Part shown: one piece after another, positions 6,630 to 62,785 of the stretch
How the letters are laid out: each line of letters opens with the position of its first letter
How positions within the stretch are numbered: position 1 is the first letter of the stretch
Notes under the pieces: model-generated
Told to the model about the DNA's origin: nothing
The model's database searches: none
Seen by the model: only the letters and a program-made list of their open reading frames with translations
From: Eledone cirrhosa
Lineage: Eukaryota
Direction of reading: 5' to 3'
DNA length: 64,000 bases
NCBI GenBank assembly: GCA_964016885.1
Contig: OZ024741.1
Span: 378,386,001-378,450,000, forward strand
Position numbers and translations under genes: made by a program

Positions 6630-6919
6630 CCCAATATCACACATCAATCTAAAACTACTTTTCATATGTTGATTTAAAACTGCACTATTCACAAGTGTTT
6701 TTTTAACCTTCATATCATGTCTCCCTATTTTATCTGACGAAAACGCAAATGTCATCGCATGATGATATTTGTTTTTGAAATGCGCATAATAAAATACATG
6801 GGACTCTTTTAGCCATCTTTTGATCTTATATATTATTTATACTCCAGTCCTACAAACTGTAGAGTACTACTTATTCGATATCTGCTTTGCTTTATTGTAC
6901 TACAATAAAACTCACCTCC

Positions 6920-28909: not shown

Positions 28910-28939
28910 AACAAAAGATGGTTAAAAGAGTTCCATGTA

Positions 28940-29006
28940 TTTTATTATGCGCATTTCAAAAACAAACATCATCATGCAATAATATTTGTGTTTTCATCAG
29001 ATAAAA
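28940..29006 (-). ncRNA. Type I hammerhead ribozyme (inverted copy)
   Basis: Reverse complement of the motif at 29185-29251. Confidence 0.85.
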
Positions 29007-29184
29007 CAGGAGGACATGATATGAAGGTTAAAAAACACTTGTGGTTAGTTCAGTTTTAAATCAACATATGAGAAGTGGTTTTAGATTGGTGTGTGATATT
29101 GGGAAAGATATTTTATTTCTCATATGTTGATTTAAAACTGAACTATCCACAAGTGTTTTTTAACCTTCATATCATGTCCTCCTG

Positions 29185-29251
29185 TTTTATCTGATGAAAA
29201 CACAAATATTATTGCATGATGATGTTTGTTTTTGAAATGCGCATAATAAAA
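29185..29251 (+). ncRNA. Type I hammerhead ribozyme
   Basis: TTTTAT-CTGATGA-stem II (ACAAATATTATT/GATGATGTTTGT)-GAAA-TGCGCA-TA-ATAAAA. Confidence 0.85.
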
Positions 29252-29379
29252 TACATGGAACTCTTTTAACCATCTTTTGTTCTTATATATTATGTATACT
29301 CCAGTCCTACAAACTGTAGAGTGCTTCTTATCCGATATCTGCATTGCTTTATTGTACTACAATAAAACTCACCTCCTAC

Positions 29380-39399: not shown

Positions 39400-42300
39400 T
39401 AATCTAGCTGTCGTCTGTTCTACAGCGTAGTCGTAATTCACTTTGCGCAGAAGTTTTGTTCCAATTTATTGTGGAAATTTTGTAAGTTACATTTTAATTT
39501 TGATACTATTGTGTAGCTTGACCCCCCGTCTGAACTGTCAGGCGGTGGGTCAGCTCATCTTCGCAACCTCCCAGGGGTGAAAGACCTGTTTTTAAAAATT
39601 TTGTGGCATAAAATGTCAATCGTCTAGCAGAAATTTTAAACGAAGCTAACGAAAATAGAGGTGGGGGACAGCGGTAAGAGTTGTAAGCTCGCACGCTTTA
39701 GTCCCCCCCCCCCCTCCTTCCCAACTAACCTCATAGAGAAGGAAAGAAAAAATAAAATAAAAACAGACGAATGTGCGGAGAAAAATGACGAAAACACAAA
39801 TCTGGAGATTATGTCCAACAACAACAACGATTTGAAAGAATTGCATGACAATATTAATACCACAAACAAAGAAACAACAAACACAAAAATAACATTTGAA
39901 AACAACATCATAACAGAAAGCAAACCAGACGACAAAGTCAACACCAATAATATTTCATTTGCACAAACAACAAAGAAATCTTTAACATATATACCTGAAA
40001 ATATTTCAGATGTGGCACAAAGAATAAAAAACGCCAAACAATACATAACTCAAGGGGAAAATGGAATCTTATCGGTAAAAATGCCCCAAGAACTCACCAA
40101 AGATATTGAAAGTCGGACGGTTGTTTTCCGCACCATCACCAACATCTGATAAAACCTCAACAACCAACACAAGCAGAAATTAAAGCAGTACTTACAGAAG
40201 TACTTAATGAAGCCACTGTCATAAGAAGAGACAGGCTGTATGGAAGCCTAGCGATCATTATGAAGAACGAATCAGCGGCAAAAAAATATGCTTTGTTGCC
40301 GATTTGTTAGACAAATTTTACCTTTTATCCATCTTATATGGGTAAAAGAACTGAGTGCATATGGCTGGATGCGATGATGCCAGATGTGGACTACTGCTGG
40401 CTCATAGCTGGCTTCATCGATCCAGCGAATGACAACGTGATTTCCATTGGGAAAACCACAGGCAATGCGTTCAGTGGAACATGTATAGAACTTGTAGTGC
40501 AAATGATGCCTGAACGCATTGCCCAAATACCCGACAGAATCCTATTAGAGGGCCACGGGTATATAAACATTAGCGTGGATGGGAGAAGGCCGTCCTGCCA
40601 TATCTGTGCAGGCATAGGGCACCTGAAGGCGGCTTGTCCCCAACTCAACAAGAAGAAAACCCTGCTACCAACACCAGCTCCACCACCACCACCACGACAA
40701 CAGATAAACAAAACAACAAAACTCAGTCCCACCCAACCCGTCCCTCAGTAAAACTACACCACCACCACAACACAAACAGACACAACACATTACCCAAAAA
40801 CAAAACACAGTCCCACCCAACCCCTCACTCAATAAAACAACACAACCACCGCAGCCACAACACACAACACAGTCTAACATAGTGACATCCATCTCCCCCA
40901 CAAAGAAAACCAACACGGAAACATTACCAGCAAACATACCTCTTCCCTCCAACACTGAAGATAACCCAACGAATTCGGAGGAAGAAACGGAGTCCATCAG
41001 ACAGATCAAAAGGAAAAAAAGAAAACATGTGCAAAACACACAAGGCCAAACAACCCCTACCCAAATGTCAACACAATCCAACAAAACACAAAACACCCCT
41101 CCAGCAACAAACAAAACCAAACCTGCCCTCCCCTCTTCGAAACACTCACACCATCCGAAAAAAAGACATTACACTATACTTACATCAACAGAAACAATAA
41201 TAAATTAAATGAACTCATAAACAATAACCCTTCGGTTTGTACCGAAGGGGTAAACTTTGTTTCTTCAGAAAACTACCCACATTTAAAATTAATAAAGATC
41301 CCAATGAACCTCTACCGAAAACTAAAAAAGGATTTTAAGGAGGACGTAGGACCACCCTCTGTCAAACCCATAAACCGCGTCCTCCTAAAAAGCTTTCCCC
41401 CTCCCCTTCCCCTCCCAACACAATTCCAAACACCCCAACCCCACCACACACTGACGATCCCACACCACCACAATACACCCCTTCACCCCACACACCCGAC
41501 CCCATGGAAGTCGTGCGACCCGAACCCCGGGAAGCAGAAGGGTAAGTCTCTACACTCTCCTTTGGCTTTGCCGCCCACATGGATGTGTCAAGAGTAGGAT
41601 GTTTCAATGCACGTGGCCTGGGCTCAACTTGGAAGCAAGCAAAGCTTCTAAATGACCTCAGGTCACGTGGTATAAATGTAATGGTTATTTGTGAGACTTG
41701 GATCAGCGTCGTGCAGCAGCTGACCCCTACCTTCGATGACTTTGAGGTGCACGCATCTCTCTGTCAACCTGGAGGTGGGGGTGGGGTTGTCGTACTGCTG
41801 GAAAAACACCTGGGTCTTGCCGTATAGGTTGTTCACTCGGACCCGGAAGGTCGTTTGTTGGTGCTAGACGTTGGCAGTAGTGGAGGTGCGGCCTTGAGAC
41901 TGGTCGCCGTCTAATCCTTTTTCGACGCTGAACGACCCGACTTCTTCCAACGCCTGGAGACTTTTCTGGGAACGTCGCGTTCCCTGCTTCTAGCGGGGGA
42001 CTGGAATGACATCCTAGATGCACGTTGGGACTATGCAGGAGCATGTCCTAATAGATCGGGGGTGCAACAGCCTCAAGGGGTTACTCGACCGTTTTAAATT
42101 GGTCGATAGATATCGACTAGATTTTCCAACTGTGCCAACCTGGACTTGGACGAACCATGGTTGTCAATGTAGATCGTACTTAGATCGATTCTTAGTTAGA
42201 AGTAAGGATAGGGACATATTAAGCTGTCCAGAAATGCTCACGGTTGGCTATACAGATCACAAATTAGTGACATGCGTAGTCAACCTTGAGAGAACACATA

Positions 42301-45233
42301 GACAGGGTCCCGGTTACTGGAAACTTAATTCGTCTTTACCGGCAAAAGAGGCTTACAGAGACCGAATTAGCAGATTAGTTAAGGAGAGGTTGATGGGTGC
42401 AATCGTCAACAACCGATGGTGGGCATCTCTCAAAAGAGAGATTAGAACAGAATCAATAAGTTATAGCAAGATGTTAGCTTCCGATAGGAATAGGAACGAG
42501 AAAGAATTAACAGGTAAATTAGAAGAGGCAATCAAGAGCGAAGATGTGGCCAGAGTGCTGGCATCGAGGACGGCCTTGAGCCAGTTTTTCGATGCAAAGC
42601 ACGAAGGCTGCGTCATTCGAAGTAAAATACGTGCTCTAGGTAATGAGGGGGCCAAAGCCGTTGGCTGGGCCCTAGTGACAGAAGCTAAGAGTGGAAATCG
42701 ATCCACTATCTGGTCTTTGCAAGACGAGGATGGGCGGGTGATCCGGGAGCCTAAGCAGATTTGCGAGACCTTTCAAAGGCACTTTTCCCGATTGTTCGGG
42801 GGAGGCGGGGGTCCGGGCGGGGACGTGGATTTCGGTCCATACCTCGACGGCCTGCCGCGTCTATAGAGCGAAGAGGCAGAATCCTGCGAGGGACCAATCT
42901 CGGTTGATGAGATCGGGGATGCGCTGAGCCAATGCAGCAAACGCAAATCTCCAGGTCTCGATGGAATACCTTACGAACTTTATTTGGCAATGCCGGTCTT
43001 CTTCTCCGAACTCATCGAAGCAGTCTACTGCAATTGGCAGCAGAACGGGAGAATTCCTTGTTCTGTAGCCAAGGGCGTAGTCTCGCTGGTGAGCAAGGAC
43101 GAGAACAAGGGGGATAGTATAAATAATTTTCGGCCCATAACCCTGCTAAACACAGAGTTAAAGATTTTGGCCAAGGTGTTAGCAAAGAGGTTGGCGCTTG
43201 TCGTGGGTAGCCTGGTGGGAGATGCGCAGACATGTGCTATCCCATAGAGGTACATTCACGACAACCTCCACCTCATGCAATACATCATAGAGATGGTTGG
43301 CAACAAACCAGGCTTCGGTGGGACCCTGATCAATTTGGATCAGTCTAAGGCGTTCGATAGGGTCGACCATGGTTACCTGGATGCGGTGCTAGCGGCGGCT
43401 GGGTTCGGCCCTGTTTTCAGAGGCTGGATCACTGCCTTACATAGCAACCACAACTGTTCTAGGATCAAGGTGAACGGCTACCTTTCGAAGCCGTTCGAAA
43501 TCACACGATCCATTCGACAGGGGTGCCCTCTCTCCTCCCTTCTCTACGTATTGACTCTCGAGCCTTTACTGAGGAAGTTGGAGTTGTTGCAGGGTATCCC
43601 CCTGGAACCAGGATTGAGCAAAGCGGTGTCGGCCTACGCCGATGACGTAACAGTAATGGTATCGACCGAACCGGAGATCGAGGCGATCGGTACCTTACTG
43701 GAGGAATACGAAAGGTTGTCAGGAGCGAAACTGAACCCGGAAAAATCCATCGGGCTGTAACTCGGAACGTGGAGAGGCAGACCGATGCCTTCCGACGGTG
43801 TCGTCGGACACTGGACGGAGGGCCCGGTGAAGTTGCTTGGGGTCTGGTTTGGACCGGACCTCCAGGTGGAAAAGAACTGGGGCGAGGTTACGAGCGAGGG
43901 TGTTTGCACTGACCCAGAAATGGGACAAGTGTAAGCTGTCCGTGAAAGGTCGGGCGGAGGTGGCGAACATTTACATAACGTCCGTCACCTACTACCGCCT
44001 GACTGTCGTACCTTGCCCTAAGGAAACACTCACCACCATGGAACGCATGCTCTTTCAATTTCTTTGGAAAAAGCGCCCTCCTATGGTGAGAAGATCCATC
44101 TGCTGCCAACAACCTTCGAAAGGGTGGCTGGGGATGCCGTGGTTGATGATGCGTAGGCACGCATTAAGGCTACGGAACCTACAGGTATTCCTCACTGGTC
44201 AACCGGTGTGGGCTCCGTTCGTGAGACGAGCCTTTCCGAGACTCGTCTCGTTCACCGAGCTGCAGTCCTAGGGTCAAGCAAAGATCCGGAAAACTGGGTG
44301 ACTGGCACACTGAGTGTGCCCAGGCGCTCAGGGCTCTCTGGCAAGCGGACCCGGCCATCGGTGGAGAATCCACCTCGTCATTCTATACAGGGCTGGTGGC
44401 TAGCAGGGGCGATGACACCCTTGGAGAGTCGCTGGTTTTGGTAGACGACAAACTGGCCAGCCTGTTCGGTAGGACTTTCGGCCCGGGACCAATGGACAAC
44501 TTCCAGAAGTCACTGGTTTGGCAGTGCTACCGGGGGGGGGGCTCTACCCGTTCGAGAAAAGCTCTACAGACACGGGCGCCCGGGCAGGGATCCCTCGAAA
44601 AATATTTGCCCTAGATGCGTGCGTCACGAAGAAACCGTTGCGCACGCATTAGTGCAATGTCCGGGCGTGGCTGATCTGTGGGGCTACGCCGAACGACTGC
44701 TGTCGCGGCTGGCGCCGATTCGATTGACCGCCGAGTCCGTGATGACAATCAAACCGCCTACCCTTTTCACAAAAGAAGCAAATGCGGTTTTTCTGTGCGT
44801 AATAGCCATGTTGAAAGAGGTTATTTGGTGGGCACGATTGAAAGGTCTGAGGTCAGGCAACTTCCTCTCTGGCCATAGTCTGGTCTACTTCTTCCGATAT
44901 CACTTCGGAAGAAGGATAAGAATGGAGAGAGAGGTGCTTGGCCACAGGCAGTTTTATGAAAGGTGGGTGATAGTGGCGAGAATGGCTCGTGTAAATGGGC
45001 CTTCTCTGTATAGCATCCTGTAGGTAAAGAAGTGAAGGAGAGGGGAGCACCTTCTCAATGTGCTCCCCGGGCAAAGGATTGCACACTTTTTCGTGTGCAA
45101 CCCCCATCACGACCCCTCCCTTTTGAGGTTGTTTTCGATTATTTTCATTTTATACCCTTTTTACTCGGTTTTATGTAAACTCCCCCTTTGTATTTGTCCC
45201 TTCTTTTTATGCCTTTAAGGTAAATAAAGAAAT
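39400..45233 (+). mobile_element. Full-length decayed Tx1/L1-clade LINE (ORF1 ~39610-41545; ORF2 41579-45023)
   Basis: ORF1 CHICAGIGHLKAAC (CCHC); ORF2 GCFNARGL, ICETW, SYLDRF, TDHK, YWKLN, FRPITLLN, DQSKAFDRVDH, RQGCPLS, AYADD, CPRC..HALVQC; AATAAA near the end; preceded by (TATC)n. Confidence 0.95.
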
Positions 45234-45286: not shown

Positions 45287-46205
45287 TCTATCTATCTATC
45301 TATCTCTCTCTATATATATGTGTGTTTGTGTGTGTGTTTGTGTATGCGTGTGTGTTTGTGTATGTATCTGAGTGTGCGTATGTGTGTGTGTGTGTGTGTG
45401 TGTCAATAAATGCTTGAAGGCGTTTGTGAGGTTGCTTATGAGATGTGGAGTTTGGATGTCTGTATTTTTTGCATATGCGGTAAGTCTCTGTGCGTCACTT
45501 CCTGTGTTGGAATACGTATAAGCAAATGAGGCATCATTCTGGTTTTGCTCAAAATATTTGTGTTGACGCAATTTAATTTGAATGCATCTGTTTACGGAAG
45601 GAGTGAAATTCTTAGATATATTTCGGGTCAAGACGACGTCGGGAGAACAATAAAACATATTGGAGATCGCACTTTTAAATAGCATTTGTAATATGATTAT
45701 TATAATAATATTACGACAATAATTCAATGTAATGATTAAAGATGATATATACGAAAGCCCACATTCATGTGTTGACTGAAACTTCCACTGGCTAACTAGG
45801 AAGAATTGATGTTGTAGCTTTCAAATTGTGCATGCATTAATTACAACTTTCCTTATGAATAACTGCACTGCTTCTTACATGAGAATATGTTGGAAAATAT
45901 ATCACATTTGGTTAATCCAGGGGAGTATCTTGGGAAGCCTACGATCTTTCAGCCTGTGATTTTTCCAGCCGACACCTAGACAGAAAAATACAAAATCATA
46001 TACAGGCAAATATCTGAACAGAAAGCAGCATATAGACCAACGAACCCGGTTGTATGTTAACACCCCATACATAGATATGTATGTAGTAGCTACTGAACAC
46101 ACCCATGATTTTCTCCAATTATTCCGTTTCTTTCTCTTCTCTCTCATTGATCTCTCTAATACTTTTTTTCTTATACATTTCTATCTACTAACGGAGTAAA
46201 ATCTC

Positions 46206-46312
46206 AAATGTTTTCATACTATTCTTCATAGATCAAGCTTCAATATCGTCTAATTTTACTGTGATGTTTTATTTTGGTGGGGTCCGTTGATTTCCGTATA
46301 TACATACACACC

Positions 46313-46389
<77 letters not shown>

Positions 46390-46479
46390 GGAAATCAACG
46401 GACCCCAGTAAAATAAAACATCACAGTAAAATTAGAGGATATTGAAGCTTGATCTATGTAGGATAGTATAAAAACATTT
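46206..46479. repeat. Inverted repeat (~95 bp arms) flanking a (CA)n(TA)n tract
   Basis: catagatcaagcttcaatatc..ggggtccgttgatttccgta / tacggaaatcaacggacccc..gatattgaagcttgatctatg. Confidence 0.92.
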
Positions 46480-46679
46480 CAGCTCGTGATGGACATGGTT
46501 ATACGGAACAAGAAGGACAACCGCATGATGCGCAGGAACGGTCATTTCACCCAGGCAATACAAAACTGCGTGCGAGATGTGTAAGTGAGATAACTGCGAA
46601 AGTTCCAAAGTTCCTAGTTGATAAGAAAATTAGGATGTTATTGTTGTTCAATCCGGGACTTTATAGTTATGTAAGAGGT

Positions 46680-48770
46680 GTTTCCAGACATGTGGACAAC
46701 GTCTAAAGAAGTCATACATTGTGTTTAGGCAATCACTATTGCGTAATCTCTTTAGAATATTTATCCGTTAACCAATACGTAGTGCACAAGACGGATTTGC
46801 CCTTGCGCATGGCTTGGACTTAGTGATAGCTTTCCATTGGATGGAGTAGACTATACTTGCGTCCTTGAGGGACTATACGGGGCTCACGAGTTTCGGGGAT
46901 TATCGTTTGCCCGGGCACCTAAAAGTCGACCGATGGTTCAGGAAGCGTTCCTTAAATCGGCGCTCCGCCATGCCCACATAAGATTTGTCCTGTGGTTGAT
47001 TTGGTCGGTTGGAAGTGACCACATCTTCAAAAACTACGGTGGGTGTGTTGCATTGCTGGTGAAGGGGCAAACCTTTAGGCTTTCGGCAAGAGCTCCCCTG
47101 GAGGGGGTATTGCCCTTATGGTTGTTGGTGATGTGGGCATTCATATTCTTAGCGCAGGATTACCCTAGTTTTACTTTGTGTGTGTTAAAGATGGAGCGGT
47201 TTTTTGTGACGTATGGGAAAGTATCCGTCTAAGTGGGCTAAACATGTTTTCCTACATTAGTTTTAACGTTTGGTGAGAAGGGAGGAGAGAACCAGATAGT
47301 TTGTCTATTGTTACGCTTTCTTTTATTACTGCTGTTGTTGTTAGTGGGAGAGTAAGTGATAGGTTGCGAGAAGGCGCTGTTAGCTAACGCAGTGTTATAG
47401 TAGGGTGCCGTTCTGTCAAAGATAGCCATATTAGAAGAGAGGTTAGACATTCTAGTACATATATTATTTACGAAGTTTCTAAAAACAGTGAGAGGGTGGT
47501 ATGGGTCCTTTTTTAATGTAATTGAGGTTTTCGTTAAGCTTAAGGAAGGGTCTGTAGGTGTGTGGGCGAAGGCCTAAATTAATATCTGAGAAATCTATGC
47601 CAGAGAGGTTGATAGCTACTGTTATCCTAAGACCTAACTCATTGAAGATGGAAGTTAAGTCTTTTTTAAACCTGTCGAGGTCGTGACCAATTTTATGGCT
47701 CGATAAGGTCAGTCCATCGTCGCGGTATATTCCCGTGTGGAAGTCCGGGAATCTAGCACGTAATATGTCTAAAATGAATAGTCCAACCAAGTCACATACA
47801 TCAGCATTGTCAAACGATCCCATGAAGACGTCGAATAGTTATGAAGTGGTTGACTTCTTTGCCCTGGCTACTCCGTTGTTGAAGAGGAAGGTTTTCCGGC
47901 AGTGATCAATGGTTTCCATATCTTAAAAATGGACGGTAGTGCAAGTGGTAGCAAAGTCCATCGCTTTGTTTAACAGGATCTCTGAGATCGGCGGGTAAAA
48001 ATCTACACTGTCGAATTACGTGATCTTCCTTTTTGGGGATTTGAAGGAGTTAAATCATTTAATGACGGAATCGCTGTTTTCCCACTGGGACAGGTTGGAC
48101 TTGGTCCTAATGGTCTTAACTATGTTTCTAAGTATAGCCTTACTGACTAGTCCGATATCCGTTCGTGCCGGCTTTAGTAGTCTGCACGTAGGACTAGAAG
48201 TAAAGTCTACCTTGTGATCTTTCAGGGTGAGGAACGCATCCCGCTTAGTTAAGCATTTTAGCTTCTTATCTATCTTAAGGGCGACGGAGAGGTCTTTGGC
48301 TTCTGTGTTGATGTCGTGGTAGGCCATAGCGTTAGCCTTATTATATTTAAAGGTAATAGCATTATGGGCCAAATGGCTGTAAGTAGTGTTGTCGACATCG
48401 TAAACATTATTGGTTTTGTTTGAGAGAAGGAAAGTGTTATTGGAATACCTACATTTCTTATTATCGTTTCTAAGTTAGTTAGAAAGGTGTTAGGGTGTTT
48501 GCGAAAGGAATCTTTAGCGACTAAGTCAGGAAGGTCCGCCTCGAAAGGAGCGAGTTCAGTTCACTTAGGAGGGTAGGTTCTCGATTTCAGGTTGAAGGTG
48601 TTACTGGTGCCTGTAATTTTGCCGTCAAAAGGAAGGGCTCACCACCTTAATCGTCTGACGACATCTTCCACTTTTTGTAGGAGAAGCTTTTGGTAAAAAT
48701 AGTTGGAGGGAGTGGGAATATTCTTCAGGGAGTATTCCAGTTCGTATAAATCCAGGATTATTTCACATTC
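46680..48770 (-). pseudogene. Decayed Penelope-like (Naiad-type) RT/GIY-YIG ORF
   Basis: EYSLKNIPTP, LTLKDHK..CRLLKPARTDIG, MGSFDNADVCDLVGLF..GIYRDDGL, IWFSPPFS..VKTNVG, YVGMAERRFKERFLNH; colinear with the 34077 ORF. Confidence 0.9.
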
Positions 48771-48987: not shown

Positions 48988-49100
48988 ATATTGTTATACT
49001 TTGGGAGGGTCATGTTGTCAATAAGAAACACACGCACCAATTGATTCACTTCAATTTATTATATTATTGGCAACATGACCCTCCCAAAGTATATCAATAT
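48988..49100. repeat. Small inverted repeat (~37 bp arms)
   Basis: atattgttatactttgggagggtcatgttgtcaata / tattggcaacatgaccctcccaaagtatatcaatat. Confidence 0.9.
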
Positions 49101-49156: not shown

Positions 49157-49231
<75 letters not shown>

Positions 49232-49241
49232 AACAAGTAAG

Positions 49242-49335
49242 ACCCCGACGGCTGAGCTCAAGCCGTTTCGACGGCTAATTCTGTACTGAATGAAAATGCA
49301 TTCTGGTATTTAAATAGCCGAACTTATCAAGGGAT
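49242..49335 (-). ncRNA. Type I hammerhead ribozyme, U3:A8 core variant
   Basis: Minus strand: ATCCC-TTGATAA-G-tt-CGGCTA...TAGCCG-t-C-GAAA-CGGCT-tgagctc-AGCCG-TC-GGGGT. Confidence 0.78.
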
Positions 49336-50734
49336 AATTCCATATATGGTCAAAGAAATAATCACCAGGATTGGTCACATCACAAGTTAGTAGTAAATCT
49401 GTGAGGTCAAGTTGGTGGGCGAAGGGGTAGCTAAACCTGCCGGTAGGAGAAAATGCGAGAGGGAGTGGAGTAGACCCATTCATGCGTTGGTAGTGCCAGC
49501 TACAGCTGGGTGTGAGGTCAACGAGGATACGGGGGAGGGGGGAGGGGGGAGGTCGAAACGGTAAGTAGAACAATGAAAGGTAAAACTATAAGAGGTACTG
49601 AGAGACAAAAAAAAAAAGCAAAATCTGGTTACGAAGACATAAGTCACTCGCTATTGCTAGGCTAAAGAAATACATAAATAAATAAATAAACAAATAAGTG
49701 AATAAAAGAATAGATAAATAAATTAAAAAAAAAAAATATATATATATATATATAATGTAGAATAAAAAAAAAAAAAAAAATAATAATAATAGAAATAAAC
49801 TAGATGGGACGGAAATAAAGGGCCCCTTAATCGAGGTATAAGTGCGAGTATCGTACGGTGACGGGTCAACAAAGGGGGGGGGGGGGGGGGGCAGAATACT
49901 AAAGAGACTACCACGAAAATAATAAAGGTTCTACCCCAATCACAGGGCCAGCAACCACCCAGTGCAAGAAAGTAAACTAGTACGAGAATATAATTCAGGG
50001 TCCCGCCAAAAAAAATACTAGTGCTAACTCTAAGGGTACCGCCACGAAACAAAAAGTCTTATACAAGCTACATGAAAGATCGTACGAAGTAAAAGTAAAG
50101 AACGGAAAATTAATACAGGACCCCCCCCCCCCCCCCCCAAAAAAAAAATAAAGGGAAAAAGAAGAAAGAAATACTGGATAAACGAGAAATTAAGGCAAAG
50201 ATACCACTAAGAAATATAGAAGGCACGGAAAAAATGAACAGCGGTCGGAGAAGGGGGCGAGTATCCGAAGTCTAACACCTCTGCTATAAAAAGCGGAGTC
50301 AGCCAAATCTATCATAGAATAGGGGAGGGGGTGGAGGTACTGAAGCTACACTGAAGCTACAGAGGCTAGTCAGTAGGAATGGGATGGTAAGATGACGGAC
50401 GCCTACTAACACCCCAAAAAATATTTTTTTATTTTCTTATTTTATTAGCCTCTTAATTTTCTCCTAGACTAATAGGTGTATTGGAGCCTGTAAGCTTTAT
50501 GCACTCATTGAGGGATTTTCTGAGATGCTTCTACGGGACCCCAAGTCTCTTGGTTTAATGTTGATGCGTGAATTATATATTTTTGTCTAATTTTTAAACT
50601 TCAATCCCTGACCCCGACAACTAATATAAAAGAGCCCCCCTTAAAGCGGAGTTGCTGATGTATACAACAATTTCAAACTGCTAGCCTTGAGTCCTACGTT
50701 GATGTAAACAATGATCTTGCAATCACATGTTATA

Positions 50735-50781
50735 TGCCTTGATAAGTCCCACCATGGGGTCGGACGAAACGGCTGTCGGCA
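50735..50781 (+). ncRNA. Minimal type I hammerhead ribozyme, U3:A8 core variant
   Basis: TGCC-TTGATAA-GTCC-caccatggggtc-GGAC-GAAA-C-ggct-G-TC-GGCA, followed by AATAAA. Confidence 0.78.
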
Positions 50782-50871
50782 ATAAACTTGTTATAATGTC
50801 ATAATAGTTCCTTTGTTCTTTTTCACTAATATTTCTACTCTGCGTATACGCATAGAGCTTAACTAGCTACC

Positions 50872-50934
50872 GTCACATATTTGGTAAGTCAGGCGTGATC
50901 ATCGCGTTTCACATACGTCCTACCATACATCTTA

Positions 50935-50976
<42 letters not shown>

Positions 50977-51039
50977 TAAGATGTATGGTAGGACGTATGT
51001 GAATCGCGATGATCACGCCTGACTTACCAAATATGTGAC
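50872..51039. repeat. Near-perfect inverted repeat (~66 bp arms) centred on (TA)n
   Basis: gtcacatatttggtaagtcaggcgtgatcatcgcg..catcttactt-(TA)n-aagtaagatg..cgcgatgatcacgcctgacttaccaaatatgtgac. Confidence 0.95.
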
Positions 51040-51273: not shown

Positions 51274-54200
51274 TGTTTCTTTATTAGCCACAGGGGCACA
51301 GTAGAACGGAACAAATACAAAGGGGGAACTTTACATACATTAAAAACGTGTAAAATGTTATCACAAATGCAATTTAAAAAATTAGTCGATTTTCCCCAAT
51401 AAGGGGAGACAGTTTATATGGGTAACACATACCCCCGAAAAAATGTGAAACCCTCATCTCCAGGAGTACGAAGAGTTTGTACTCCTTTCCTTTCCTTCTC
51501 CTTTTCCTCAACCTACAGGCTGATATAGAGAGAAGGCCCATTCACTCGGGCCATTCTCGCCACTTTCACCCAACTTTCATAAAACTTGCTGGGGTACAGC
51601 ACCTCTCTCTCCATCCTGATTCTTCTTCCAAAGTGGTATTTGAAAAAAAGAATCAGTTGTTGGCCGGAGAGAAAGGTGTCTGACCTCAGCCATTTCAACC
51701 TTGTCCACCATACAAACTTTTTCGCCATAGCTATTGCACAAAGGAAAACCGCCTCTCCTTCGTTTTTGAAGGAGGGTGGCGGTTTGATCATGACAATGGA
51801 CTCGGTGGTCAACCGGATTGGTCCCACTCGTGACAATAGTCGGTCTACATAGTTCCACAGGTCAGTGACGCCCGGGCAGTGTATGAATGCGTGCGCGACG
51901 GTTTCTTCGTTACGCACGCACCTCGGACAGATCTTTTTTGCAGGATCCCTGCCCAGGCGCCCATGTCTGTAGAGCTTTCTCGAACTGGTAGAGCTCCTCG
52001 GTAGCACTGCCAGGCCAGGGACTTTTGGAAGTTGTCCATCGGTCCCGGGCGGAAGGTCCTACCGAACAGACTGGCCAGTTCATCTTCCTCTACGCCTAGA
52101 GTTTCACCGAGCGCGTCGTCGAATTTGCTGCAGATCAACCCTCTATAGAATGACGAAGTGGAGTCTCCACTGATCGCCGGGTCCGCCTGCCAGAGGGCTG
52201 TGAGCGCCTGACCACATTCGATGTGCCAGTCGCCTATTTTCCTCGGTCTTTGCTTGACCCAGGACTGCAGCTCGGTCAGCGAGACGAGTCGTGGGAGGCT
52301 CACCTCACGAACGGAGCCCACACCGGTTGTCCGGTGAGGAATACGTAGAGATGCAGCAGCCTGAGCGCGTGTTTGCGCATCGTCAACCACTGAATCCCCA
52401 GCCTTCCGCTCGAAGGGTGTTGGCAGCAGATGGATCTTCTCACCAAAGGAGTCCGCCTCTTCCAAATGAATTGGAAGAGCGCGCGCTCCATTTTGGCGAG
52501 CGTTTTGGCTGGATAAGGGACGACGCTCAAGCGGTAGTAGATGGAGCCGCTATAAAAGTGTTCGCCACCTACGCTCGACCTTTCAAGGATAGTTTGCACT
52601 CGGCCCACTTCTGGGTGAGTGCAAACACCTTGGCCGTCACTTCGTTCCAGTTCTTCTCCACCTGGAGGTCCGGACCAAACCAGACCCCGAGCAGCTTTAC
52701 CGGTCCTTCCGTCCAGCGTCCGACGACGCCATCGGAAGGCATCGGTTTGCCTCTCCACGATCCGAGTTGCAAACCGATGGACTTGTCCCGGTTCAGTTTC
52801 GCTCCTGTGAAACTTTTGTATTCCCTCAGTAAGGTGCCGACTTCCTCGATTTGCAAGGCGCTCGACACCATTACTGTCACGTCGTCGGCGTAGGCCGACG
52901 CCGCTTTCAGCAGTCCCGGTTCCAGAGGGATGCCCTGCAATAGCTCCAACTTCCACAGTAGTAGCTCGAGAGTCAGTACGTACAGAAGGGAGGAGAGAGG
53001 GCATCCCTGTCGAATGGATCGCGTAATATAGAACGGCTCCGAGAGGTAGCCGTTCACCTTGACCCTTGAACAGATGTTGCTGTTGTGCATTGCAGCAATC
53101 CAGCCCCTGAACACGGGTCCGAAGCCTGCCGCCTCGAGCACCGCATCCAGGTAACGATGGTCAACCCTATCGAAAGCCTTAGACTGATCCAAGTTGATCA
53201 AGGCCCCACCAAAGCCGGGTTTACACCCTACCCTATCTATGATGTATCGCATGAGGTGGAGGTTGTCGTGTATGGACCTGGTCGGGATTGCGCATGTCTG
53301 CGCTTCTTCCAGCAGGTTCTCGACGACAAGCGCCAGCCTCTTTGCCAACACCTTGGCCAAAATCTGTAACTCTGTGTTTAGCAGAGTTATGGCCCGGAAG
53401 TTGCCTATGTCAACCCCTTATTCTCGTCCTTCCTGACTAATGTGACCACGCCCCCGGTTACAGAACTGGGAATTCTCCCGTTCTGTTGCCAGTTGCAATA
53501 GACCGCTTCCAGGAGACCGGAGAATAAGTCCGTTATTGCTACGTAACATTCGTAGGGTAGACCGTCAAGACCTGGAAATTTGCATTTGGCGCATTGGCAC
53601 AGCGCGTCCCCTATCTCAGCGGCTGAAATCGGCTTTTCGCAGAACTTTGCCTCGCTGTCCGAGAGTCGCGATAGGCCGTCGAGGTATGGACCGAAATCCA
53701 TAGTCCCTCCCGGCGCGCCGGCCCGCCCGAACAGTTGAGCAACGTGCCGCTGAAAGGCCGCACACATCTGCTTCGGCTCACGTATCACGCGTCCGTTTTG
53801 GTCCTTCAAAGTCCGAATCATGGACTTGTTGCCACTTTTTTCCACCGTCACTCTGGCCCAGCTAATAGCTTTGGCTCCCTCGTTTCCCAGAGCACATATT
53901 TTGCTTCTGCCAACGCAGACCTCGTGCTTTGCGTCGAAGAACTGGTCCAAGGCTGTTCTTGTTGCTAGCACACTGGCTACGTTGCCACTTATAATTGCCT
54001 CTTCTACTTTATCTACCATTTCTTCTCGGTTCTATTTCTATCTAACGCTAATTCTTTACTAAAAACTAACGAGTCTAATCTAACTTCCCTCTTGAAAGTG
54101 GACCACCATCTGTTGCTGACAATGGCCCCTGTCAAGTGCTGTTTAAATAAAGTGCTAATCCGTCTACCGGGTCCTTGTCTGTGGGTTCTATCAATGTTGG

Positions 54201-57005
54201 CCATGCAGGTCACTAGTTTGTGATCTGAATAGGCAACCATGAACATTTGTGGACAGCTTAACATGTCCCTATCCTTATTTCTAACTAGACCCCTATCTAG
54301 ATACGATCTAGATGTTCCGCAGTTGTTAGTCCACGTCCACAGTTGCACAGTCGGAAAATCTAGTCGATATCTATCGGTCAAATCGGTCGATTAACTGTTT
54401 GAGGCTGTTACACCCCCCTTTATCGGGAGATGCTCCCACATAGTCCCAACGTGCATCTAGGATTCCATTCCAGTCCCCCACTAAAAGCAAGGACCGGGAC
54501 GTTCCCAGAAAAGTCTCTAGACGTTTGAAGAAGTCTGGCCGTGGTGTCCCGGATGGAGCATATGCAGCCACCAGCCTGAAGGTTCCACCTTCACTACCGT
54601 TAACGTCTAGGACCACCAATCGACCCTCCGGGTCCAGATGTACCGTCTGTGTTACGAGTCCCAGGTGTTTCCGCAGCAAAACAGCAACTCCGCCCCCACC
54701 CACCCCCGGTTGACAGAGTGATGCGTAGATCTCAAAGTCGTCGAAGATGGGGGCCAGCTCTCGCTCGCTGTGGATCCTGGACGCGCAAATGGCTACCACA
54801 TCCATACTGTGCGACCTGGGGTCGTTTAAGAGTTTTCCCTGTTTCCAGGGCATCCCCAGGCCGCGTACATTCACACATCCAACTCTTATATTGGCCATGT
54901 TGGTGCTGAAAAGTTAAAACAGGAAAAGAGATCACTCACCCTTCGTCTGCTGGGGACCAGACTGCACGATTTCCATGGGGGTGTTGGAGGGGTCGTCTGG
55001 TTGGGTGGTGGTTTCCGGTGGGGTGGGGACGGGGATGTTTGGTGGGGTGGGGTCTGGTGGGATGGGGGTGCCTGGAGTGGGGAGACATTTGAGAAGGAAG
55101 CGGTTAAGTGGTTTCACGCAGGAATTCCCCATATCCTTTTCAAATATTTCTTTTAGGGACCTATAAGTTTGTATAGGGACCCTAATCAGTTTTAGGTTCA
55201 GTTTTTTGTTATTTTTAATAGAGTGGACTAAAGCTTTCCCTACGGTTTTCACCGAAGGGTCGTTCGTGATGGTCTCCATTAGTGTTTTGTTTTCAGTGTT
55301 TATGTAAGTGTAATTGTAATTTTCTTGTGTTGTGTTTGTTTTTGTCTGTAGTTCTTGTGTGTGCTTTCGTTTTGTTGTAGGTATTTTGTTTTCAGGAGGT
55401 GGGGGTTTTGTTTGTGATGTATTTTGTTGTTTGTGTTGGTGGTTGTATGTTTGTGGTAGTGTTTGCTGGTTGTTTGCTTTTGTGATGTCTTTTCTTTCTT
55501 TTCGAGCGATGGGGTTCTCCCTCGTCTTCACTGGGTGATGGTGAGATAGCCTCATCTGTTGTATCGTCTGTGTGACTGGGGCGGGGTATGTCTTGGGGAG
55601 CTGTTGTATCTGTATGTGATTTTGCAGTGGTTTTAGGTGGATTAGGGTTGGGTGGGATTGTGTTTGGTGTGGTTATTTTTGTGTGTTGGTGTCGTTGTTG
55701 TTGTGGTGGTGTTGGTGGTTGTGTTGTTTTGATGGGTGTCGGCAGAAGAGCCTTTTTTTTACTCATTAATTTAGGACAGGAAGCTCTCAGGTGACCCCTG
55801 CTAAAGCAATGGTAACATGAAGGCCACCTACCCTCAATCGAAAAGTTTATGTAGGTGAGTCCGTCCAAGAGTACACGTTGTGAGATCATAGCTATACGCT
55901 CTGGGCTCATTTGCACCAGAACTTCAATGCTAGTCCCATTGAATACATCTCTGGGGGACTTTCCTACTGACCCTAATCTGTCTTCATCAAAATTGATGAA
56001 GCCGCACAGTATCCACCATATGTTCACCTTTGGTGTGACACTCGTGATTTTAATCTTTTGTGTCCTGTTTCCCATGTATGTAGGGAAAATGGTATAGAGG
56101 TTGGATACAATTGGCGACACAGAGTAATTTTGGGCCATCAATTGATCCTTCATGAATACCGAAATACTCACAAAAAGTTTGCTTCTTTGAATGAATGCAA
56201 TACCATTCATTGAATTTTTGAAAACCAGTACAATTTCTTTCTGTGACAATTGGACTGGTTTTCGGTTAGAATTGGGAACTGTCCTAAAAACTATCGTTCT
56301 GAGAGCAGTTTCCTTCCGAATTTCTACCGGAGCATTGATGCTGAAAGCACCATTTTTTTCGAAAGTGACATATCTCCTAGCGTCCTTTAAAAGTTGTTCG
56401 GCATTTGATATGTCGAGATATGTCAGTTCTTTTTTGAACTGTCTGTGCAAACGAGATTTTGGTTTCTTTGTGGAATTATCCGTGTTGGGGGTGTTGTCAT
56501 TATTGTTGTTATTGTTGTTGTTATTCTTGTTGTCACTGATGTTGATATTACTCGTATTTTCCTTGGTGTTGTTGTTGTCTTTTATGCTGCTGTTATTGGT
56601 GTTGTCTTTATTTTTTTCTTTGTTGTTGTTGTCATTGTTGTTTTTATCATCATTATTGGGGTTGTTGTTATTTTGTTGTCATTGAACTGTTTGGTGTCAT
56701 TTGTGTTGTTTGGATATGAATTTGTTTTTACATTTTCATTTCGCCTTTCCATCTCCAGCACCATTATCGTCGAACGCAGCGTTCATAACGTAATCAAACT
56801 TCTTACAATATTTTTCCAAAATTCGCTGGAGAAAAAATTTTTCAAACGAATATTTCGCACCTGTAGGGGCGAAAATGAGTTGACACAACACCTGAAGTTC
56901 CAGATGGTGGGTCAAGTTACACAATAATATTAAATTTAACTAAAAACTCACGTTTTTTTCTTACATAAATTAACGGAAACTTCTCCGCGAAGTTACACAC
57001 ATCTG
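51274..57005 (-). mobile_element. Full-length decayed Tx1/L1-clade LINE (ORF1 ~56850-54932; ORF2 54898-51513)
   Basis: ORF1 CYHCFSRGHLRASC; ORF2 GCVNVRGL, VGDWN, SYLD, SDHK, DQSKAFDRVDH, RQGCPLS, AYADD, CPRC..HAFIHC; AATAAA then (CT)n/(TA)n. Confidence 0.95.
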
Positions 57006-57077: not shown

Positions 57078-60000
57078 ATAACTTTCTTTCTATTTGCCAC
57101 CAGGGCATCAAAAAGTGGGATAAGTAGAATGGGGGGAGTTTACATAAAAAGGCGTCCTCAATAAGGAGGAGGCAATAACAAGATATAAAAATAAAATAAA
57201 ATATAACAAAAATACATTTAATAATAAAACCCTCAATAGGGAGGGGGCGCCTGGGGGGGGATCGTACAACACCCCCCCGAAAAAAGTGTGCAATCCTTCA
57301 CCTCAGGAGCAAAGAAATGGGGTGCTCCCTTGATCTTTCATCTTCCTCACCTATAGTCTGATGTAGAGTGAAGGCCCATTCACACGGGCCATTCTCGCCA
57401 CTTTCACCCATCTTTCAAAAAAACGGCTGGGGTGCAGCACCTCTCTCTCTATCCTGATCCTTCTTCCGAAATGATATCGGAAGAAACGGAACAGTTGTTG
57501 GCCAGATAGAAAGGTGTCTGACCTCAGTCCTTTCAGACGCGTCCACCATACAACTTCTTTCGCCATGGCTATTACGAACAGAAACACCGCCTCTCCTTCG
57601 TTTTTGAAGAGGGGAGGCGGCTTGATGGTTACAATAGACTCGGAAGTTAACCGGATCGGACCCACCCTTGACAGCAGTTGTTCGACATAGCCCCACATAT
57701 CGGCAATGCCCGAGCAGTGTACCAATGCTTGTGCAACGGTTTCCTCGTCGCACACGCATCTGGGACAGATCTTTTTCGAGGCGTCCCTCTGTAGAGACTT
57801 TCTCGAACGGGCATTGCCCCTCGGTAGCATTGTTTTGCCAGGGACCTCTGGAAGTTATCCATGGGTCTCGGGCTGAATATCCTACCGAACAGGTTGGCCT
57901 GTTCGTCTTCCTCCATGCCTAGGGCCTCTCCGAGGGCGTCGTTGCACCTGCTAACCACCAGCCTTCTATAGAATGACGAGGTGGATTATCCACTGACAGA
58001 CGGGTCCGCCTGCCAGAGAGCCGTGAGCGCTTGGGCACACACGGTGTGCCAGGCGCCCAGTTTTCTCGGTCTTTTCTTGACCCATGATTGCAGCTCGGAG
58101 AGCGAGAATAGTCTGGGAAAGGCTCGCCTCACAAACGGGGCCCACACCGCTTGACCGGTGAGGAATACCTGTAGGTGCCGTAGCCTTAATGCGTGTTTAT
58201 GTATCATTAGCCACGGCATCCCCAGCCCTCCTTTCGAAGGGCGTTGACAGCAGATGGATCTCCTCACCATAGGAGCCCGTTTCTTCCAAAGGAATTGGAA
58301 GAGTGCGCGCTCCATTTTAGCGAGTTTCCCTTGGGGAAGGCATAATGGTCAGGCGGTAGTAGATGACGGACGCTATATAAGTATTCGCCACCTCCGCCCG
58401 ACCTTTCAGGGACAGTTTGCACTCGGCCCACTTCTGGGTCAGTGCAAACACTCTGTTCGTTACCTCACCCCAGTTCTTCTCCACCTGGAGGTCTGGTCCG
58501 AACCAGAACCCGAGCAACTTCACCGGGCCCTCCGTCCAGCGCCCGATGACGCCATCGGAGGGCATCGATCTGCCTCTCCATGTGCCGAGTTGCAGACCGA
58601 TCGATTTTTCCCGGTTCAGCTGAGCCCCTGTAACCCTTTCGTACTCCTCCAGTAAGGTGCCGATCGCCCCGATTTCCGAGGCCATCGACACCATCACTGT
58701 TAGGTAATCACCGTAGGCCGACACAGCTTTCCGCAATCCCGGTTCCAACAGGATGCCCTGCAACAACTCCAACTTCTGCAGCAGTGGCTCTAGAGTCATT
58801 ACATACAGAAGGGAGGTGAGAGGGCACCCTTGTCGGATTGACCGCGCGATTTCTAACGGCTCCGAGAGGTAGCCGTTCACCTTGACCCTAGAGCAGATGT
58901 GGCTGCTGTGAATGGCATTGATACAGCCCCTGAAAAGGGGTCCAAATCTTGCCGCCGCTAGCACCGCATCCAGGTAACCATGGTCGATCCTATCGAATTT
59001 CCTTAGATTTATCCAAGTTGATCAGGGCCATACCAAAGACGGGTTCGTTCCCAATCCTCACTATGATGTATCGCATAAGGTGGAAGTTGTCGTGGATGGA
59101 CCTGGACGGCATAGCACATGTATATGCATCTCCCACCAGGTTGCCCATGACAAGCGCCAACCTCTTTGCTAGCACCTTGGCCAAAATCTGTAACTTTGTA
59201 TTTAGCAGAGCTATGGGCCTGAAATTATTTATATCGTCCCCCTTGTTCTCGTCCTTTCTCACTAGCGTGACTACGCCCTTGGTCACAGCACAGGGAATTC
59301 TCCCGTTCTGTTGCCAGTTGCAGTAGACGGCCTCGAGGAGATCGGGGAACAAGTCCGGCATAGCTAGATATAGTTCGTATGGAAGACCATTGAGACCCGG
59401 GGATTTGCGTTTGCCGCATTGGTTCAGCACGTCGTCTATCTCAGCGGCTGAAATCGGCTCCTCGCAGGACTTCACCTCCCTGTTTGAGAGACGCGGCTGG
59501 CCGTCGAGGTATGGACCGAAGTCCACTTCCCCAACCGGCTCCCCGCCGCTTCCGAACAATCTGCGAAAGTGCTTTTGAAAAGCCTCGCACATCTGCTTAG
59601 GTTCAAGGATCACCCGTCCATCCTGGTCTCGCAAAGACCAGATAGTGGATCTACTCCCTCTTTTGGCTTCTGTCACGTGGGCCCAGCTAACAGCTTTGGT
59701 CCCCTCGTTTTCCAGAGCACGTATTTTGCTACGGACGATGCAGCCTTCGTGTTTCGCGTCGAAGACCTGGCCCAGGGCCGTTCTCGACGCTAGCACTCTG
59801 GCCACGTCGTCGCTTCTAATTGCCTCTACTACACTATCTACCAACTCCCTTTGCTTCCTATTTCTATTTGAGGCTAACTCCTTACTAAATTATATAGAGA
59901 CTACTCTAATCTCTCTTTTGAGAGATCCCACCACCTGCTGTTGACGATGGCGCCCGTCAATCGCTCCTTAACTAAAGTGCTAATCCGGTCCCTGTAAGCC

Positions 60001-62785
60001 TTACTTGCCTGTAAGGACAAGTTGAGCTTCCAGTAACCGATTCCCTGTCTATGCGTTCTGTCAAGGTTGAACATGCAGGTCACTAACTTGTGGTCTGAAT
60101 AGCCAACCATGCGCATTTTTGGACAACTTAAAAAAGTCCGTATCCTTATTTCTAACTAAGAACCTATCTAGGTACGACCTAGATGATCCGCTACAGTTTG
60201 CCCAAATCCAGGTTGGCGCAGTCGGAAAATCTAATCGATATCTATCGGCCAGGTCAAATCGCCCAATTAACCCTTTGGGGCTATGACACCCCTCTCTATC
60301 GGGACAGACCCCTACATAATCCCAACGTGCATCTAGGATACCATTCCAGTCCCCCACTAATAGCAAGGAACTAGAAAAGTCTCCAGACGATGGAAGAAGT
60401 CCGGCCGCAAAGACCCGAAAGGACCGTAGACGGCTACCAACCGCAACGCTCCGCCTTCACCACTGCCAAGGTCCAGAAACACTAGTCGACCCACCGGGGC
60501 CAAATGTACCGTCTGTGTTGCGAGACCCAGCTGTTTTTGCAGCAGAACAACAACCCCACCCCAGCTCCGGGCTGACAGAGATATGCGTGCATCTCAAAGT
60601 CATCAAAGGTGAGGGTCAACTGTCGCACGTTGCTGATCCGGGCCTCGCAAATAACCATCACATCTATAAGTTGTGACCTGAGGTCATTTAGAAGCATTGC
60701 TTGCTTCCAAGTTGAACCCAGGCCACGCGCATTTAGACAGCATTCTCTTAGCATTGCCATGTTGGTGGTGAAGAGAAAAGGCACTTACCTCTCTGCGTCC
60801 CGGGTATCGGGCTGCACAATTTCCATGAGGGTGGGGGAAGGGTTGTTGGGTGGGGTGCTGTTTTGTGGAAGTGTAGGGGCATCAGTGGATTGTGTGGTTG
60901 GGGTGTTTGGAGTTGTGTGGGTGTTTGTGGAGGGGGTGGGGAAGTGTTTTAGGAGGACACGGTTAAAGGGCTCGACGCAGGGGGGGGGGAGGTCACGTTC
61001 TCTTTAAAGTTGTTTTTTAGTGTTTTATATGTGTCCTCTGGGGCCTTAATCATTTTGAGGTGGGGGAAATCCCCTGCCTGGCTGATTTAGCCCTTGGGTT
61101 TTCACTAAATTGTTGTTGTACACAATGTTTAGCACTTTTTTATTTCTTGTGTTTATGTATGTGTATGCATGTTTTTGTTTTTGTGTGGTGTTTTTTGTTT
61201 GCTGTTGTTGTGTACTCTTTTGTGTTGGTGTCTTTGTTATGTTTTGGGGAGGGGTTGTTTTCATTTGTGTGTCTGAGGTGTGTTTTCTTTTTTTACTTCT
61301 GATTGTGTGGAAGTGCTACTCCTCGTCGGACGACGAACGAGGGTCATCTTCCGCGTTGGAGGGGAGGGGTAGGTTTTCGGGTTGTGTTTTCGGTGCGGGT
61401 GTTTTGGAAATATTTTTTTTTTAGTGGGGGGCATGGGTTGGACATTGTTTTGTTTTGGTTTGAGCTGTGGTTGTTGTTTTTGTAGTGGTGGTTGTGGTGA
61501 TTGTGTTGGTTGTGCAGTTGTTGGTGGTGTGGGTAAGATTGGGGTTTTCTTATTAAGTTGAGGACAGACAGCCCTCAGGTGACCTCTGGCTCCACAGAGG
61601 TAACACGAGGGCTGCCTACCCTGAACGGTAATGTTGATAAAAGTTTGATCATCCAGGATGACGCGTCCAGGAATCCGGGCGATTCTTTCGGGCCTCATTT
61701 GAACTACAAGTTCGAGGCTCGTTCCACTGAACGCGTCACCCGATGCCTTTCCCATGGATATTAGTGTGTCATCGTCTAGGTTCAGGAAACCTGTCAATAA
61801 CCACCATATGTCCATAATCGGAAGGATGGTGTGAATTTTTATTTTGTGTGTCCTTCTACCCATCTACGTAGGGTAGAAGGTGTATGCGGTGGATGTAATT
61901 GGTTTTATGGAGAGTTTCACTGCTGTGTCCCTGTCCTTCATGTGTATGGATAGACTCCCGTAGAGTCAATCCTTCTGAATGAATATGATGTATTTCAGGA
62001 CATCTTTTAAAACCAGCTCTATCTCACTCTGTGATGGTTGAGCTGGTTTTTTGCTTTTGTCTGAGACTGTCCTAAACATGACAGTGTTTAGGAGTCTGTT
62101 GCTTTTTTAGTTCCGGGGGGAGTGGATCGAAAATGATCCAATATCCCCGTACATTATTTATTTTTTGGCATCTGCCAGTAGCTCCTTCGCTTTGCTTATA
62201 TCTACTGGCAGATAGTCGAGGGTTTTTCTTGGCGTCTGGGCGAAGCAGACCTTTTCCTTGTTTGTGTTGATGTTGTAGTTGATGGTGTTGTTGTTATCGC
62301 TGTTGTTGTTATCACAGTTATTGGCCTTGTTGTTGTTGTTATTGCTATTGTTGTTAGTGTTGTTTTCGTTCGTAGCATTGTTGTTGTAGTTGCTGGTGCC
62401 GCTGGTTGTTTGGTTTGTTGCCATGGCAACGTCAAGTTGTCGGTCAGCAGGTGGAGAAAATCCTTCCTCTGGCTGACCTTTGTCTTTGACATCTGCTACT
62501 ATGACCGTGGCAGGGGGAAGCTGTAAGCATATCTTCCTCTTTCCTCCTTCGAATTCTGGTGAAGATGCTTCAGCCATTTAAAAAAAATGTTAGCTTTTCA
62601 AAAAAAAACTTTTTGTTAACTATTTCGACTAAAGGCGTAGAATATTTTGAGAGACTGACCAGATCAAAATTTGACCTGGCAGTCCCTCTACAAAATGGTA
62701 CAAAAATGAAAGTTTACAGTCAAGAATTTCTATAGAAATTTAAGCAGAACTTACTCAGCAAGTTTCACGCGTGTGTCCATCCCAG
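57078..62785 (-). mobile_element. Full-length decayed Tx1/L1-clade LINE (ORF1 62577 to ~60785; ORF2 60760-57351), head-to-tail with the 51274 copy
   Basis: ORF1 CYLCGARGHLRAVC; ORF2 CLNARGL, VGDWN, SYLDRF, SDHK, YWKLN, FRPIALLN, RQGCPL, AYGDY (mutated YADD), CPRC..; preceded by (TATC)n. Confidence 0.95.

Follow-up and report, generated by a model that had tools for sequence, protein, structure and literature searches.

The window, i.e., the whole 64-kb stretch of DNA that was analysed, contains a segment of about 1.7 kb that lies between two (TA)n microsatellites and carries two outward-facing hammerhead motifs. In this segment we located 3' fragments of two repeat families (A and B), putatively assigned to the Hydra clade of Penelope-like elements (PLEs), and a fragment of a third, retrozyme-like family (R). 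The features are as follows.

49157–49229, no strand: (TA)n target microsatellite, left border
49230–50350, minus: 5'-truncated 3' UTR/pseudo-LTR of family A, a putative Hydra-clade PLE; last 1121 nt of a 3604-nt unit, with the short (tail-less) 3' end
49242–49335, minus: type I hammerhead motif of family A; U3 (49330):A8 (49325), 6-bp stem III, cleavage predicted 3' of C17 (49247)
50340–50361, no strand: 11-nt direct duplication and ~3-nt microhomology at the A/R junction
50359–50430, minus: internal fragment (~65 nt) of family R, a retrozyme-like repeat, without a hammerhead; overlaps B by T-rich microhomology
50422–50936, plus: 5'-truncated 3' pseudo-LTR of family B, a putative Hydra-clade PLE; last 515 nt of a 5209-nt unit, with the long (tailed) 3' end
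50735–50781, plus: minimal type I hammerhead motif of family B; U3 (50739):A8 (50744), palindromic stem III, cleavage predicted 3' of C17 (50777)
50937–50974, no strand: (TA)19 target microsatellite, right border
50975–51039, minus: 65-nt 3'-terminal fragment of family B, opposed to the main B copy across (TA)n

An earlier, sequence-only reading had described this interval as (TA)n-bounded and free of ORFs. (TA)n was present on both sides, with the right border at 50936/50937 and not at 50870, and no long ORF was found within the interval because both pieces are 3' UTR. Microhomology occurred at both internal junctions (A/R and R/B) and the 11-nt duplication at one, with (TA)n at neither. The family R fragment is oriented in the same sense as A. 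The short 3' end of the window's B copy would fall at ~50832, and the 65-nt family B fragment beyond the right border is probably a separate tiny insertion.

To establish whether the segment moves as a unit, the check proposed in the sequence-only reading, 49230–50936 was searched against its own genome (3.0 Gb; 59 matches, 40 of 6071 candidates scored). Among the 59 matches listed, the query was spanned in full by its own locus only, and 28 further matches covered approximately query positions 1–1121 (the A half) at 91–94%. The right half (50422–50936) returned 39 further full-length 515-nt matches at 97–98% (40 of 1934 candidates scored). Exact matches to the B 39-mer and the A 19-mer numbered 206 and 311 in the genome, respectively, with none for the reversed controls. 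The halves are therefore dispersed separately, each linked to its own RT ORF. This makes it very improbable that the whole 1.6–1.7 kb is a non-autonomous retrozyme-like element bracketed by two ribozymes, as had been suggested from its non-coding and (TA)n-bounded nature and its two hammerheads, and as the retrozyme-like fragment inside it might also suggest. No second place spanned both halves, the segment being single-copy among the scored matches, and this was the only locus with A and B motifs ≤20 kb apart on contigs C1 and C2 to 384.7 Mb (100 A and 59 B sites). Moreover, the motifs lie on opposite strands, so no single RNA would be cut by both.

Family R itself comprised 557–559-bp units, 2–3 in tandem, that are non-coding (longest stop-free frame, 49 aa). 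Its canonical type I hammerhead, one per unit, was matched in 11 of the 14 loci scanned, the search having been performed with the junction fragment (40 of 913 candidates scored). Neither Rfam nor the type I descriptor described below picked up this hammerhead, in which stem II is long and GAAA is preceded by an additional A. Tandem family R units in PLE-like inverted arrangements were observed at L077:504–2264 and L234–L236. Non-LTR retrozymes were reportedly the subject of work by Cervera and de la Pena in 2020. With its ~558-bp non-coding tandem units and a type I hammerhead in each, family R resembles them and appears retrozyme-like under the definition given in the cited passage of bioRxiv 10.64898/2026.07.22.740005. 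The whole 1.7-kb segment differs, as it is neither tandem nor multi-copy and lacks same-strand hammerheads in each unit.

RT ORFs with a C-terminal GIY-YIG domain were found upstream of other A and B copies. For family B, locus L068 carried an 877-aa frame between two direct B copies (unit of 5209 nt), and stop-free 877-aa frames occurred at three loci. For family A, the ORF of the 3604-nt tandem unit stops near 2325 and the window copy begins near 2500, so the latter is pure 3' UTR. The A ORF has the same RT and C-terminal GIY-YIG arrangement as B but was frameshifted in most copies examined, and the two proteins shared ~48% identity in the RT. The B frame contained YRDD at 367, VVY at 755 and YVG at 770, with one Cys between the latter two, and SDKT was present in B (135) and in A (locus L125). 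The linker read CNCRRKDKC in B and CNCPDRSSC in A (both CxCX5C); CxxC and CxH motifs were present near the C-terminus (CSLC and CPH in B, CNLC and CKH in A) and CCHH was absent from both. B and a further family, C, had R-W-R in place of RWK, a conservative difference. A homologue search gave 660 matches among 8000 scored candidates, of which 120 were listed at 35–44% identity, and the top homologue carried PF01541. Pfam recognised neither the B protein nor the C-terminal part of A, and matched the N-terminal part of A to RVT_1 at E 0.12 only.

Compared by eye with the motifs in PMC8557442, families A and B fit the Hydra clade of PLEs; the assignment is based on motifs and not on a tree with reference Hydra proteins because Pfam was weak or silent. 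The traits shared with this clade, as described in the cited parts of Craig et al. 2021 (PMC8557442), included a single ORF with RT followed by a C-terminal GIY-YIG domain, DKT, the CxCX5C linker, CxxC/CxH without CCHH, (TA)n targeting, a hammerhead near the 3' end, and a tandem and inverted (5') pseudo-LTR structure with an optional tail. In the same source, the entry for the Hydra-clade element Penelope-13_HM gives one sense and one inverted hammerhead. Differences concerned unit length (3.6 and 5.2 kb here versus typically <3 kb), tail length (81–86 and 104 nt here versus 30–40), R-W-R versus RWK and, at the expected place of the hammerhead, a U3:A8 core in place of the canonical C3:G8. All 26 Hydra rows in File S2 of that study have CTGA-N-GA cores, although canonical descriptors were used there and variants could have escaped. 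Two other clades were considered and rejected: Naiad, which has an N-terminal endonuclease, CxC and DKA (here the endonuclease is C-terminal and the motif DKT), and Nematis, since the motifs match Hydra instead. An apparent regular association of the A pseudo-LTR with a second RT ORF was likewise dismissed, the shared downstream sequence being the 81–86-nt tail followed by (TA)n. A 714-aa RT and GIY-YIG ORF of another PLE type (L064:3456–5597, minus; RVT_1 E 2.9e−15) was observed as a neighbour 360 bp from an A copy.

Both hammerheads, outward-facing and each with UUGAUAA and GUC, were seen by direct reading and with a type I descriptor that permitted either C3:G8 or U3:A8. The minus motif consists of stem I (AUCCC/GGGGU), the UUGAUAA core, a long stem II, GAAA, a 6-bp stem III and GUC. 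The plus motif consists of stem I (UGCC/GGCA), UUGAUAA, stem II closed by GUCC/GGAC, the palindromic ACGGCUGU stem/loop III and GUC. Each has the three helices and conserved positions of a type I hammerhead (core 3–9, 12–14, 15.1–16.1, H17, with 3:8 paired). Run over the 64-kb window, the descriptor found five motifs, two with U3:A8 and three with a canonical core, in comparison to a mean of 0.08 matches (maximum 1) in 50 local dinucleotide shuffles; both folds are thus present, far above chance expectation. The minus motif escaped a stricter descriptor because its stem II has an internal loop. Rfam returned no match over the window at the gathering threshold and, at E ≤ 1 on five loci, detected neither U3:A8 motif and only one unrelated canonical hammerhead.

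The sequence-only reading had complete three-stem folds for both motifs, which for a monomer holds for one of them. Only the minus (family A) motif can build stem III as a monomer, and its MFE structure was the three-stem hammerhead (z −1.8, by itself an unremarkable fold). The plus (family B) motif is of the dimer type, its stem III needing a dimer (computed self-duplex, −9.7 kcal/mol). An alternative hairpin burying GAAA is possible in the A motif, which has two CGGCU and two AGCCG segments (within 49242–49335), and was 1.7–2.4 kcal/mol weaker than the hammerhead fold.

These results support, with a probability of roughly 0.92, a reading of the 1.7 kb as two 5'-truncated 3' ends from two PLE families (A on the minus and B on the plus strand), placed head to head in (TA)n, each with a pseudo-LTR hammerhead motif predicted to self-cleave in which U3:A8 replaces C3:G8. 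Back-to-back 3' ends of Penelope-like elements had been offered before as an option for a single family; the 3' ends are as suggested and the families are two.

We further investigated the conservation of the U3:A8 core. Among copies retrieved by whole-segment BLAST, UUGAUAA was kept in 26/28 A and 29/29 B copies. U3 and A8 were both present in 118/120 B and 58/59 A loci in a wider tally, which is biased as many loci were fetched with the motif. A canonical-core version of the B 39-mer had no match in the genome, and subfamilies that differ at N7 and loop II retained U3:A8. The B motif was also covered by a few Logan contigs, whose runs carry the labels of two other organisms; N7 varied in one of these, and U3 and A8 had no listed change. 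U3:A8 is fixed in both families. A loose U3:A8 pattern gave 1,056 matches versus 796 for its reversed control and this count was therefore not used. The 3:8 pairing is kept as U3:A8, in agreement with the proposal that C3U and G8A are compensatory, and the natural variant has already been published, PLEs included.

Fixation in both families does not amount to one ribozyme lineage, as had been supposed, since by element descent the two U3:A8 families do not form a clade. An RT-core tree was built from 25 rows, 11 of this genome and 14 external. In it, B joined sister families with C3:G8 hammerheads (100/99) and the A group joined family C (99/97), the single locus of which has C3:G8 with an altered U4. 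A constraint holding B with three A-group rows was rejected (p-AU 3e−58); this covered one row without a core read (A3) and left out a fourth, long-branch A-group row whose core was unread. The rejection implies two origins of U3:A8 or else an exchange. Sister families B' and B'' (60–63% whole-ORF identity to B) carry the C3:G8 hammerhead at the matching position, and in one B sister family the start of stem II was identical to that of B. CCUUGAUAAGU and CGAAACGGCU occur in both A and B, with different letters at these places in B's sisters. The A and B motifs agree over 11 nt surrounding the core and over 10 nt reaching into stem III, which their own sister families lack. Some of these shared changes are presumably simple moves to optimal hammerhead letters, so exchange between A and B is raised only as a possibility.

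Could U3:A8 simply mark a decayed, non-functional hammerhead? Minor-letter frequencies in the hammerhead and the rest of the UTR were 0.019 and 0.018 in A, and 0.0066 and 0.0059 in B. Within families, the hammerhead is therefore no better conserved than the remaining UTR, which is expected for dead copies and gives no sign of selection. Metazoan PLE hammerheads are also described as weak in vitro in the cited passages of PMC4209133. Against decay, hundreds of copies and several subfamilies are fixed for the double change, with variation only at tolerant positions; stem I shows a compensatory change relative to a sister family (TGCC/GGCA in B versus TGCT/AGCA); and U3:A8 ribozymes active in vitro are on record in the part of PMC3088659 cited here. 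On balance we consider decay improbable.

The outward geometry was examined by tallying neighbours within 6 kb among the first 100 listed sites per motif. For A there were 26 outward, 0 inward and 4 tandem neighbours, and for B 16 outward, 0 inward and 1 tandem, so that the 200 listed sites yielded 42 outward pairs of one family but none facing inward. Outward-facing hammerheads are the normal geometry of these elements and correspond to the inverted, 5'-truncated copy known from the literature. Two kinds of 3' end occur in each family, one short and one tailed, with tails of 81–86 nt (A) and 104 nt (B). Where both ends were pattern-matched, one short and one tailed end occurred together in 20/20 B and 15/16 A same-family outward pairs. 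This rule agrees with two RT start sites, as shown in vitro for an Anolis PLE in the cited passages of PMC11167929. There, hammerhead cleavage was assisted by protein and insertion in vitro did not require it, so that the function assignable to the hammerheads here is limited.

From published PLE biology, a plausible sequence of events is that the GIY-YIG domain nicks both strands of (TA)n, and the RT would then prime one cDNA per strand at two sites near the RNA 3' end, giving short and tailed ends. Joining of the truncated cDNAs 5' to 5' through microhomology would leave the hammerheads back to back. Where copies are active, the hammerheads likely process read-through RNAs of tandem units into single-unit lengths, with B acting as a dimer via its palindrome and A perhaps as a monomer. 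The motifs of this locus would be inert passengers unless transcribed.

We surveyed 77 apparently unpaired sites (40 B and 37 A) for other cross-family pairs; owing to subfamily differences, ~28 were untraceable to a true 5' end. The remaining sites included three clean cross-family outward pairs (L158, L171 and L215) and two doubtful ones (L191 and L207). The window (A short, B tailed) and L158 obeyed the one-tail rule, which was broken by L171 (short and short) and L215 (long and long).

Two origins of the A–R–B fusion have to be weighed against this background. A single integration, in which one strand was primed on A RNA with a subsequent jump to R and the other strand on B RNA, has in our view an even chance of being correct. 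It is consistent with the short-plus-tailed ends of the window, of the same-family pairs and of L158, although the tail rule would be satisfied by chance half the time. It is also consistent with internal junctions that show just microhomology and the 11-nt duplication without (TA)n, and with private substitutions that were alike in the two arms (A 18/865, B 7/461; p = 0.53, a test of age with low power). However, L171 and L215 imply that other routes exist. These two pairs favour the alternative of independent A, R and B insertions in one (TA)n nest, fused by microhomology-mediated deletion with a small templated duplication, which is credible at somewhat under even odds. PLE fragments lie nested in (TA)n in this region, PLE microhomology deletions have been published (PMC3846280, in the passages cited), and family B is younger overall (median private substitutions 0.4% versus 0.8%). 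Nevertheless, later deletion requires two clean junctions without residual (TA)n, in a window whose ends obey the one-tail rule and whose arms are similarly diverged. We thus assign much the same probability to one integration with jumps between templates and to a later deletion at microhomologies. A broader proposal, that one Penelope complex primes two strands on RNAs of different families and jumps to retrozyme RNA to give three-family chimeras, and that the same jumping moved U3:A8 features between the unrelated A and B, is tentative and we consider it rather doubtful.

Several other elements occur in the window. Tiny inverted-repeat insertions in (TA)n, resembling the 60-nt head-to-head micro-copies of family A, lie at 48991–49100 and 46203–46482. 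A second outward-facing hammerhead pair, from a single family with canonical C3:G8, is found at 28938–29008 (minus) and 29183–29253 (plus), and a related canonical motif at 6726–6796 (plus). Two more decayed Hydra-type PLE ORFs (34077–36389, plus; 46687–48758, minus) have RT-core identities of 52% and 37% to B, respectively, and neither was assigned a hammerhead. In addition, three LINE copies, ~80% alike, are located at ~41500–45030 (plus), ~51500–56700 (minus) and ~57350–61900 (minus); judged from ORF translations, these have a zinc-knuckle-like ORF1 and an AP-endonuclease/RT ORF2.

Published systems already include hammerheads in PLE pseudo-LTRs, inverted pairs and the U3:A8 variant. The cited passages of Cervera & de la Pena 2014 (PMC4209133) report U3-A8 minimal hammerheads in Schistosoma mansoni Cercyon PLEs (~1,300 matches), opposite-strand dual motifs 100–700 bp apart in PLEs, and dimer-type hammerheads. 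The core covariation and its position in PLE pseudo-LTRs are the same as here. The families are different, the family A motif combines a long stem II with a 6-bp stem III that can form in a monomer, and the opposite-strand motifs described here come from two families. The same natural 3/8 covariation (U3/A8), cited as active in vitro, appears in Perreault et al. 2011 (PMC3088659), in passages not tied to the A or B elements. A literature search, in which subscription journals were thinly covered, returned neither U3:A8 in Hydra elements nor cross-family inverted pairs. Overall, the explanation is an ordinary one, new Hydra-type PLE families with a known hammerhead variant. What is modestly new is the presence of U3:A8 in Hydra-clade elements, in two lineages with C3:G8 sister families, and the three-family chimeric insertion, cross-family chimeras being uncommon.

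Hundreds of hammerheads in this genome escape descriptor and Rfam searches. The C3:G8 and U3:A8 sister families represent a natural pair for studying the fixation of a two-step compensatory change in a catalytic core. Finally, if cross-family pairs of short and tailed ends are common, double-ended PLE insertion would use two separate RNA templates and could carry retrozyme RNA. Such two-template insertion, if true, bears on the mechanism of PLE integration.
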